Of a stretch of DNA of 64,000 nt, positions 53,892 to 56,428 are shown piece after piece (position 1 is the stretch's first letter; each line of letters starts with the position of its first letter). The DNA comes from Heptranchias perlo (Eukaryota). The position numbers and the translations under genes were made by a program. The DNA is taken from assembly GCF_035084215.1 (NCBI RefSeq), contig NC_090334.1, positions 73,904,001 to 73,968,000 on the forward strand. The letters run 5' to 3'. Below the pieces are notes generated by a model. The model was not told the origin of the DNA. It searched no databases and worked only from the letters and a program-made list of their open reading frames with translations.

Positions 53892-54150
53892 CTAATCAGA
53901 AAACAGAACTGGATAGATAGAATTTACACCAAAACGTTTTCAAATGACAAATGGAAAAACCTATTTGCTTCTCCTTCTCCCTTCTGCAGAAATCGGGGTT
54001 TTCCTTAATTATGATAAAATAAGAGGTTAAATATAGGATCTTGGATAGAAAAGTGTTTCCGACAGAACTAACCAACAACCAGGCAACTAGCACCAACATG
54101 AATTTTTAGCTCATCTGGTCTGCCCATTGATGAATATATTCAAAATAGTG

Positions 54151-55042
54151 CTGTAATGTACATGTAATGAATCTGTAATGTACCTGTAATGAATCTGTAA
54201 GCTATAATCTGTGTTGAGTGTGATGCAATGAGGCACCCTAGAGTGTGATGAATTGTAGTTATGTACAATGTGTTCACTGAATGGTACTTGCTGTAACCTG
54301 CAAATTGTATAATCTGTATTGTGTACGTTTGGAATGTGATATGACAACTGTATTGCTGCAAATTTTATGAAGTATATTTTATGAATAAAGTATATTTTTG
54401 GAAAAAAAAAGGCCGATCTCCCAGGACAAGGCTCGCCCATTGCACTTCGGATGTGCTGACGCCTGCGATGTCCCCAAATGCGGGATACTCGACTGCAAAA
54501 TTTGTGATAGTGGGACTGCGTTCGCGCTCTCCCCTAGTTTATGACTAAAAACAGAAATAACATGAGCTCTCAGAGCGGTGAGTTTTTAATGGAGTAACTT
54601 CCATGCTCGAATCACTGTCAATCCGAGCGATCAGCCCCAAGGACTTGCTGGCCGATTAATAGTGGTGTTTGTCGTTCAACGTCCTGTTAGTTTTTCAGCA
54701 AAATACCGAGAAACCCATAGATATTAAAGCATTTCCGGGACTGGATGCTGAGATGCAGCCGCCGCAAAAGCGCGATGAGGAAAGGCCACAGTTTAGGACG
54801 CTCTCGCCATCGTACGCCGAGGGACTGGAAACCAAAAGAAACTCCTCGTAATGAATGTGTAATGACTGTAATTGCTGTAATGTAACTGTAATCTGTATTG
54901 ATTGCAAGTGCAATGAGGCACCCTGGAGTGTCATGAACTGTATTTATCATGTATGACCTGTAGTTGTCTTGTGATAGTTGCATTGTTCTGTTTACCTTTA
55001 CAAATTTTATGAATAAAGTATATTTTTGAAATATAAAAAAAA
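54151..55042 (+). mobile_element. Composite retroposed insertion: Tx1 3'UTR-polyA + U1 fragment + flank + Tx1 ORF2 end/3'UTR-polyA
   Basis: 15-bp direct repeat atattcaaaatagtg at 54136-54150 and 55043-55057. Two related tails end in (aattttatg)aataaagtatattttt-g-A-rich at ~54410 and ~55042. Degenerate AAAAKAR*GKATV* at ~54755-54796 resembles the C-terminus of fish Tx1-clade ORF2. Confidence 0.8.
54411..54536 (+). pseudogene. U1 snRNA-derived segment (approx. nt 37-164), 5'-truncated
   Basis: ggccgatctcccaggacaaggctcgcccATTGCACttcggatgtgctgacgcctgcgatgtccccaaatgcgggatactcgactgcaaAATTTGTGatagtgggactgcgttcgcgctctcccct is colinear with vertebrate U1. The U1A loop (ATTGCAC), Sm site and SL4 are present. 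The 5' splice-site-pairing end is absent. Confidence 0.93.
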
Positions 55043-56428
55043 ATATTCAAAATAGTGGGTGCTCAGAAGGTCTTCTGGCTTTATTCTGGGTAGGTATAGT
55101 ACACCACTTATCAATGATAAATGGTACACAAAGACAACGGATATAAAGTTCTGACCTAGTAATGCGATGTGAATGCACATCTTTACAGAACATCAAAGTT
55201 CAGTCATTAGGCTGTTAAACACATGGGGCTTGATTTTCAAAGTAAAAAACAGTTGGGTTGGGGGCGGGGATGGCATTGAAAATTGCCATCATTTCAGAGC
55301 CGCCCCCAACCCGTACATTTCCGGTTTGCACGAGAGGAGGGGGGATGAAGGGCGGGCGGCCAACCCGCTCCCAGGAGGCGGGTCGGGCCTTTAAACCTTT
55401 CAAGGAGGCTTCAGGCTTCCATTTTTAACCAATTCCCTATTTCAACCCGGGGCGGGGGGAAAGAGAAGGCACTTGTGAGTGTTCAGTGGAGCCTTTCAAA
55501 GTCCAAAAGGCTCAGAACTACTTACTGCTTCCAGGCAGCTGGTGTACTCTCTCAGTCCCTGCTAGAAATAGGAGGCCTTTGATTCAGTATTTGTAAAGCA
55601 GAATTTTTATATCAGGAAAAGTACACTTAAAGTATAAGCAGAGTGATGAAACCACAAAAACAACTGCCAACTTTTTATAGGTGACCGAAATTAAAAAATA
55701 TTCTCAGCCATTTATTTTTCCTTCTTGGATGATATAGCACAGAGCTTTCACTATTAGTCCTTTTAATGCCAAATACGTGTTTTAAGATCAGATCTATCTG
55801 GCTGAAAGAAAAACCAATAGTAATACTATTTAATCGAGACCCCAGAAGAAAGAGGAAATAAAAAAGACTGTGAATGTCCCAGATTCTATAGTGACATCAA
55901 TTAATGGCCACAAGATCAGCCACCTGGAAAGCACAAAGTAAAAGGTTTGATGGAGCATTATCCTGGGACCAAATGAGAACCTAAGAAAGGATTAACCAAA
56001 GACAGCAGAACACCATTCCCTACAGCTGATGCACTTAATCTACTGCAAGATCAATTTTTCCGATTATGATCTTTACTGTTTGCAGACAGCCAAGTCACCT
56101 GGATAGTGCTCGCTGCTTGAGAGCAATGCTGCCTGACTCCAGCCATCTTCATTCACACAACCCAGTGCAGTCTCGTACAATGCATTTCACAGCTTTCAAA
56201 CAGCTGGCATTGGCATGATGGGTGAATGGCCTCCTTCTATGCTGTATGATTCTATAACTATTTATTTTGAATCTACAAGGTGGGGGTTCTCCACTGCCAG
56301 ATAAGCTGCTGCAGGGCATAGGACTAGTCAGACTCACCATTCTAAGCAACACGTATAGTAATTCCATTCATACTTCATTGGCAATGATAGGGTGCTATAA
56401 CGTGTTCAGGTTGGATTATATACAGTAC

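Follow-up and report, generated by a model that had tools for sequence, protein, structure and literature searches.

The host intron

The window (the whole 64-kb stretch of DNA that was analysed) carries the gene ALKBH1 on its minus strand, and the DNA is that of a shark, the last ALKBH1 exon being closest to shark proteins. With five exons pooled, ALKBH1 identity is 89.8% to Pristiophorus, 88.2% to Carcharodon, 73.2% to Callorhinchus and 64.5% to Latimeria. We found a chimeric unit in one of the introns of this gene, a 2537-nt interval with GT-AG ends at 53892-56428 on the minus strand. The unit itself lies on the plus strand, antisense to ALKBH1. A first-pass annotation of this DNA had placed it in intron 2, and the GT-AG intron from 56428 to 53892 agrees with that placement; we infer the number 2, because the window yielded no ALKBH1 exon 1 (the first ~42 residues). 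No N gap lies closer to the unit than 40 kb.

A single target-site duplication encloses four parts

The unit is bounded by an exact 15-bp direct repeat, ATATTCAAAATAGTG, which forms the left (54136-54150) and the right (55043-55057) target-site duplication (TSD) on the plus strand. As the first-pass annotation had reported, four parts follow one another between the two copies: a LINE-like 3′ UTR (tail A), a fragment of U1 snRNA, a flank and a second LINE-like end (tail B). The 15-mer has no further exact occurrence in the window, and with up to two mismatches allowed, 0.14 matches would be expected and there are 3. Few 15-mers have an exact copy in the 3 kb upstream of them: 86 of 56,402 when tandem arrays are left out. 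Furthermore, the right TSD starts where the poly(A) run ends, and among the four sites that combine AATAAA with an A-run of at least 7, only the one at 55043 is flanked by a direct repeat. When tail A is aligned to tail B, the alignment extends into the TG that closes the left TSD, and these two bases may thus double as a 2-nt microhomology at the 5′ junction. Such microhomology is usual for truncated LINE insertions.

The span between the TSDs measures 892 bp despite its 5′ truncation, and it holds no inner TSD. Upstream of tail A, neither a U1 5′ remnant nor a duplicated U1 target was found; three probes for the start of U1 each occur once in the window, with a best upstream match of 11/20. 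Collectively, the single TSD, the terminal poly(A), the 5′ truncation and the lack of any inner TSD or U1 5′ remnant indicate one retrotransposition event, which supports the earlier proposal that the whole unit was reverse-transcribed from one RNA. An insertion of tail A at this place after the arrival of U1 is ruled out, because such an insertion would have left a U1 5′ remnant or a duplicated target upstream. The unit belongs to a known general class of chimeric retrocopies, although its cargo is unusual. The copy is inert, as it lacks a promoter and an ORF and its U1 is broken.

The U1 fragment and its genomic flank

The U1 snRNA pseudogene fragment occupies 54409-54536 on the plus strand and extends from model nt 35-37, in loop I, to the 3′ end of the RNA. 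Rfam model RF00003 scored 73.6 bits when run on the whole window (gathering threshold 69.5), and no family other than U1 reached the gathering threshold in the window. On the fragment alone the same model gave 87.9 bits (E 1.2e-22) with a 5′-cut match ending at 54535, in line with the first-pass reading of this segment as U1 from about nt 37 to its 3′ end. U1 is unambiguous from model nt 37, at 54411, and the last two A's of tail A also fit nt 35-36. The first 34-36 nt are therefore missing, and what is left of U1 is internal to the unit, behind a poly(A) and followed by genomic 3′ flank. Compared with the Rfam consensus, the fragment is altered around the Sm site and its stem-loop IV is shortened; taken alone, it folds no better than shuffled sequences (z 0.28).

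The abrupt passage from poly(A) to U1 has the look of a place where a LINE integrated into a U1 gene, a reading that the first-pass annotation did not draw although it named Keno as a parallel. We compared the 7 nt before the TSD with the loop-I sequence before nt 35 and found a 5/7 match, the reference being the Rfam consensus and not a shark U1. The background for such a match is 0.014, or about 0.04 over three registers in this post hoc comparison, the other two registers giving 1/7. This is a weak hint, at the level of sequence, that one endonuclease may have cut at both the U1 break and the ALKBH1 site. The likeness of U1 stem-loop II to the ALKBH1 flank (10/13) was rejected, 23% of 300 random intron windows reaching the same value.

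Directly after U1 we found a 3′-box-like motif (54537-54555, plus strand), composed of GTTT at 54537-54540, a 6-nt spacer and AAAAACAGA at 54547-54555. According to the accessible part of PMC2582628, the 3′ box has the consensus GTTT N0-3 AAAPuNNAGA, sits roughly 10 nt beyond the end of the RNA, and directs a processing that is coupled to transcription from snRNA promoters. The core AAAAACAGA matches the consensus exactly, whereas the 6-nt spacer exceeds the 0-3 nt of the consensus, which makes the 3′-box evidence good without being flawless. Counting both strands, we saw 62 instances of the core in the window (chance ~0.01 per 20 nt), and the looser pattern GTTT-N0-6-core 4 times (chance ~0.0006). 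The presence of such a core behind U1 indicates that U1 came with genomic flank and not as a mature snRNA. Because processing needs coupling to an snRNA promoter, a LINE-driven transcript would be expected to pass the 3′ box.

The remaining U1 3′ flank (54556-54750, plus strand) is CpG-rich, and its 3′ half may be decayed LINE ORF2. The ratio of observed to expected CpG is 0.95 in U1, 0.97 in the flank and 1.05 in the 5′ part of tail B, compared with 0.38-0.40 in the flanking intron, and 4% of 190-nt windows reach the value of the flank. These retained CpGs would suit a copy made recently from a gene region free of methylation. The first-pass annotation had described about 200 bp of unique flank: the flank has indeed no other copy in the window, but its unique part may be only ~100 bp long, because tail B could have its 5′ edge anywhere in 54640-54755.

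Two related LINE-like tails

Tail A is a 5′-truncated LINE-like 3′ UTR at 54151-54410 on the plus strand; it contains an 11/22-bp tandem array (54151-54200), AATAAA at 54384-54389 and a run of nine A's at 54402-54410. Tail B, a LINE-like 3′ UTR with poly(A), spans 54797-55042 on the same strand, with AATAAA at 55012-55017 and an A-run at 55035-55043 where reverse transcription presumably started. That the first tail carries AATAAA and A9, and that the second is related to it, had both been claimed from the letters alone, and both claims hold: 138 of 203 aligned columns are identical, and the local alignment score of 132 compares with a maximum of 45 in 300 shuffles. The 25-nt block before the poly(A) is identical in the two tails, with a longer run arising in only 0.24% of shuffles. 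Judged by this alignment, tails A and B look like two related subfamilies or well-diverged copies.

A hairpin common to both tails was discarded as evidence: its stability does not exceed that of shuffles (z -1.02 and -0.06), and the two sequences show no covariation in the 4-bp inner stem. The shared tail motif was absent from the paper texts searched. Self-BLAST also returned a weak 28-nt match (86%, E 0.064) to the conserved tail end at 59777-59803; no poly(A) or other similarity lies nearby, and the match is either chance or a very old relic. Just upstream of the presumed 5′ edge of tail B, CCCATAGAT at 54706-54720 is 8/9 like CCCATTGAT at 54121-54135, upstream of the TSD, a post hoc comparison that carries no significance figure.

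Next we considered the clade of the tails. A putative decayed ORF2 C-terminus lies at 54752-54796 on the plus strand; it translates as DAAAAKAR*GKATV*, with an internal TGA and a terminal TAG. We take this peptide to resemble the end of shark Tx1-type ORF2 proteins, as pieces in other frames back to ~54640 presumably may too, and the assignment of tail A to Tx1 is likewise our assumption. Pfam returned no family for any of eight peptides from the element, all of them short and broken queries. With the putative ORF2 end, which is also short and broken, a protein search gave 8 candidates, none at E<=10, and an atlas search gave no usable match. The element contains no reverse transcriptase or endonuclease sequence. 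AATAAA, a poly(A) end and a TSD of ~15 bp are all present; these hallmarks are common to Tx1 and L1 and separate neither. A Tx1 origin of the tails is plausible, and we use the label as a lead that combines these hallmarks with the apparent likeness of the peptide.

Copies of the unit

Self-BLAST found one copy of the unit in the 64-kb window, in which other repeats recur many times. Scanning bacterial and archaeal genomes with the shared tail end, in search of contaminating copies, gave two matches of 25-31 nt with no further similarity, which we attribute to chance. As an indirect test for further copies of the junction, we used a spurious antisense ORF (54111-54533), free of stops, as a protein query. 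A first search gave 4 candidates, none at E<=0.01. A second search gave 125 protein matches. Of these, 106 extend no further than query residue 45 (the U1 end falls at 41-42), 6 end at 46-49 and 13 at residue 50 or beyond, and none covers the tail only. No close in-frame copy of the junction is evident among the 125: the best match stretching past the junction scores 54.2 bits against 55.4 for U1 only, whereas simulated in-frame copies with 5-15% substitutions have median scores of 68-136 bits. This negative is weak, because the length of the poly(A) shifts the frame in most copies and the proteins searched may cover shark non-coding DNA poorly.

Origin of the chimeric unit

On balance, we favour a 3′ transduction from a LINE-interrupted U1 gene, in which a read-through RNA ending at a downstream LINE end was retrotransposed. 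The first step would have taken place at a source locus elsewhere, where a LINE with a poly(A) tail, probably of the Tx1 clade, entered loop I of a genomic U1 snRNA gene just before nt 35-37 by target-primed reverse transcription, the end of a second, related LINE lying 100-200 bp downstream of that gene. A transcript of this locus would pass the poly(A) signal of the first LINE, the rest of U1 and the 3′ box, and would be polyadenylated at the second LINE end. A LINE ORF2p may then have reverse-transcribed this read-through RNA into ALKBH1 intron 2, halting early within the 3′ UTR of the first LINE and leaving the 15-bp TSD.

The unit has the features of such an event, with one TSD around a LINE 3′ end, the DNA downstream of it and a terminal poly(A), and with a cargo that includes genomic flank as marked by the 3′-box core (chance ~0.01; spacer non-canonical). 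The first-pass annotation had offered transduction from a U1 locus as its second option; we find that it fits best, because of the 3′-box-like motif after U1. Against it stand the single copy seen, with no source locus found, the spacer outside the consensus, the two registers with 1/7 matches and, weakly, the lack of a close junction copy among the protein matches; a LINE specific for U1 would need relaxed specificity to reach ALKBH1.

The same parts could also have been joined during reverse transcription, as a template-switch chimera with no LINE ever in a U1 gene, which we regard as unlikely. Reverse transcription would have begun on RNA of LINE B, or on a read-through RNA of U1, flank and tail B, and made one or two jumps, the last leading from U1 loop I to the poly(A) at the end of an independent RNA of LINE A. 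Each 5′ part would then join at the 3′ end of an RNA, as the poly(A) of tail A does here and as in known chimeras. The two A's common to the tail and U1 nt 35-36 could equally be microhomology used in the jump, a point that also counts against transduction, and loop I, the binding site of U1-70K, could stall the reverse transcriptase. Tripartite chimeras from a double switch are on record in the accessible part of PMC4476161. However, the snRNA chimeras described in that part have the snRNA 5′ of the LINE, full-length or 3′-truncated, and are mostly U6, with 0 of 33 human U1 copies chimeric with L1. The U1 considered here is internal, 5′-truncated and 3′-extended, which departs from the usual snRNA-first pattern, and template switching does not predict that the site at which U1 is broken should weakly match the one in ALKBH1.

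We give somewhat less credence again to a multi-copy non-autonomous family with this copy as one 5′-truncated member. Its source would be a composite master locus, made up of a U1 promoter, U1 (an embedded LINE piece being optional), flank and LINE tail, and repeatedly mobilised in trans via tail B. The unit does end exactly in a LINE 3′ end, the 25-nt block could be a recognition signal for the reverse transcriptase, and crocodilian SINEU, probably mobilised by Tx1, provides a precedent for the entry of U1 into such families (PMC4494074). A family is hard to reconcile with one copy in 64 kb amid repeats that recur many times, with the absence of a Pol III A or B box and the presence of seven runs of at least four T's, or with a length of 892 bp and an internal U1; that no close junction copy is evident in the protein searches adds a weak argument in the same direction. 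Serial independent insertions at one spot, with tail B or a U1 pseudogene arriving before tail A, or an assembly artefact, we consider very improbable. Elements mobilised by Tx1 commonly insert in tandem at a shared target (PMC4494074), but inner TSDs, or else the 5′ part of U1 upstream of tail A, would then be expected, and neither was found. As for misassembly, the N gap is 40 kb off and a misjoin would not make an exact 15-bp flanking repeat.

Comparison with known systems

3′ transduction by LINEs of the L1 type is an established general mechanism. It shares with the unit the single TSD, the truncated LINE 3′ end, the downstream DNA and the new poly(A). Here, in contrast, the rest of an interrupted U1 is part of the cargo and the unit ends at a second LINE 3′ end, whereas L1-type transductions end at an unrelated poly(A) signal.

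The closest parallel to the poly(A)/U1 junction is provided by Keno (Tx1 clade) and Utopia (RLE type), in which, as far as the accessible parts of the sources go, poly(A) is joined directly to an snRNA that lacks its first ~36-38 nt, as here. The two elements share one U2 site, and the downstream U2 starts at nt 39, according to the available parts of PMC4640811 and PMC6136364. The snRNA here is U1 and not U2, on which ground identity with Keno was rejected, and this copy is a single junction outside an snRNA locus.

SINEU families carry a U1 or U2 head at the 5′ end, stay below 500 bp in length apart from the dimeric SINEU-1D, reach 137 to ~7,700 copies per family and genome in crocodilians only, and were probably mobilised by Tx1-Mar (PMC4494074). 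Like them, the unit unites U1, poly(A) and a TSD in one retroposed copy with probable Tx1 machinery. Unlike them, its 5′ 260 nt are LINE-like, and its U1 is internal, 5′-truncated and followed by genomic flank; thus the unit has a 3′ poly(A) (55035-55043) but no U1/U2 head, and at 892 bp it is longer than 500 bp. The first-pass description of a SINEU-like element does not survive this comparison, since U1 is internal, without its 5′ end and behind a LINE poly(A) in a unit of 892 bp. A Pol III SINE was also rejected: simple patterns for A and B boxes found none, seven T-runs are present, and no Rfam family except U1 occurs in the window.

Chimeras of the U6/L1 type also hold snRNA and LINE pieces in one TSD, but in the accessible part of PMC4476161 the snRNA is 5′-most, genomic 3′ flank is lacking and U1 is essentially absent. 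Dada-U1 is the only U1-targeting element named in the literature searched (available parts of PMC3706591 and PMC8869645). It is a DDE DNA transposon reported from ray-finned fish that, going by the same parts, uses another U1 site, makes a TSD of 6-7 bp and has no poly(A).

A possible U1-targeting LINE

If the unit arose by 3′ transduction, the break in loop I might mark a preferred target. We tentatively suggest, while considering it rather doubtful, that an undescribed shark lineage of Tx1-clade LINEs targets U1 loop I just before nt 35-37, as the U1 counterpart of Keno. Under this reading, the intronic copy may be an off-target 3′ transduction that preserves an integration junction, and the second tail may mark U1 loci as repeated targets. 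For comparison, a LINE is termed target-specific when more than 20% of its flanks share the target (PMC4494074). The accessible part of PMC4640811 names, as of 2015, only Keno and Utopia (U2), Dada-U1 and Dada-U6 as elements that target snRNA genes; for Tx1, a U5 target is also given in the legend of Fig. 3 of PMC4494074. The accessible parts of PMC5381603, PMC5786205 and PMC10946416 hold nothing on shark U1 elements. Neither a U1-targeting LINE nor a shark SINEU appeared in the literature searched, which covered few subscription papers and does not establish absence from print. A 2025 survey of site-specific retrotransposons in Nature may already list a U1 target.

As a single copy, this dead chimeric retrocopy would not be expected to have an effect; its poly(A) signals face away from the ALKBH1 transcript, because it is antisense. 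Its value is that of a fossil of LINE integration inside a U1 gene. A U1-targeting LINE, if real, would represent a new target specificity for an APE endonuclease, and would be useful in the study of specificity switches among snRNA genes and for site-specific insertion tools. It would also provide a route for U1 sequence into LINE-tailed RNAs, bearing on the origin and transcription of SINEU-like elements, which PMC4494074 leaves open.

Other repeats in the window

An assembly gap of 136 N (14201-14336) lies within a purine-rich simple repeat. Elsewhere in an ALKBH1 intron, a stop-free reverse-transcriptase-like frame of 514 aa spans 45096-46640 on the plus strand, with related copies at ~25383-26715 and 33229-35160 by self-BLAST; we take it to be CR1. 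Another LINE family, at 57250-59360 and 28619-29238, has reverse-transcriptase-like frames and an A-run end near 59360. Its two copies are 93% identical over 572 bp and have no match to tails A and B. A young short repeat that looks like a MITE and has inverted symmetry inside it recurs with ~87-100% identity at 47940-48205, 42538-42755, 23131-23258, 21826-21914, 12024-12176 and 47434-47502. A minisatellite occupies 2790-4075, where self-BLAST gives a 66-bp offset and ~96% identity and several frames are open.
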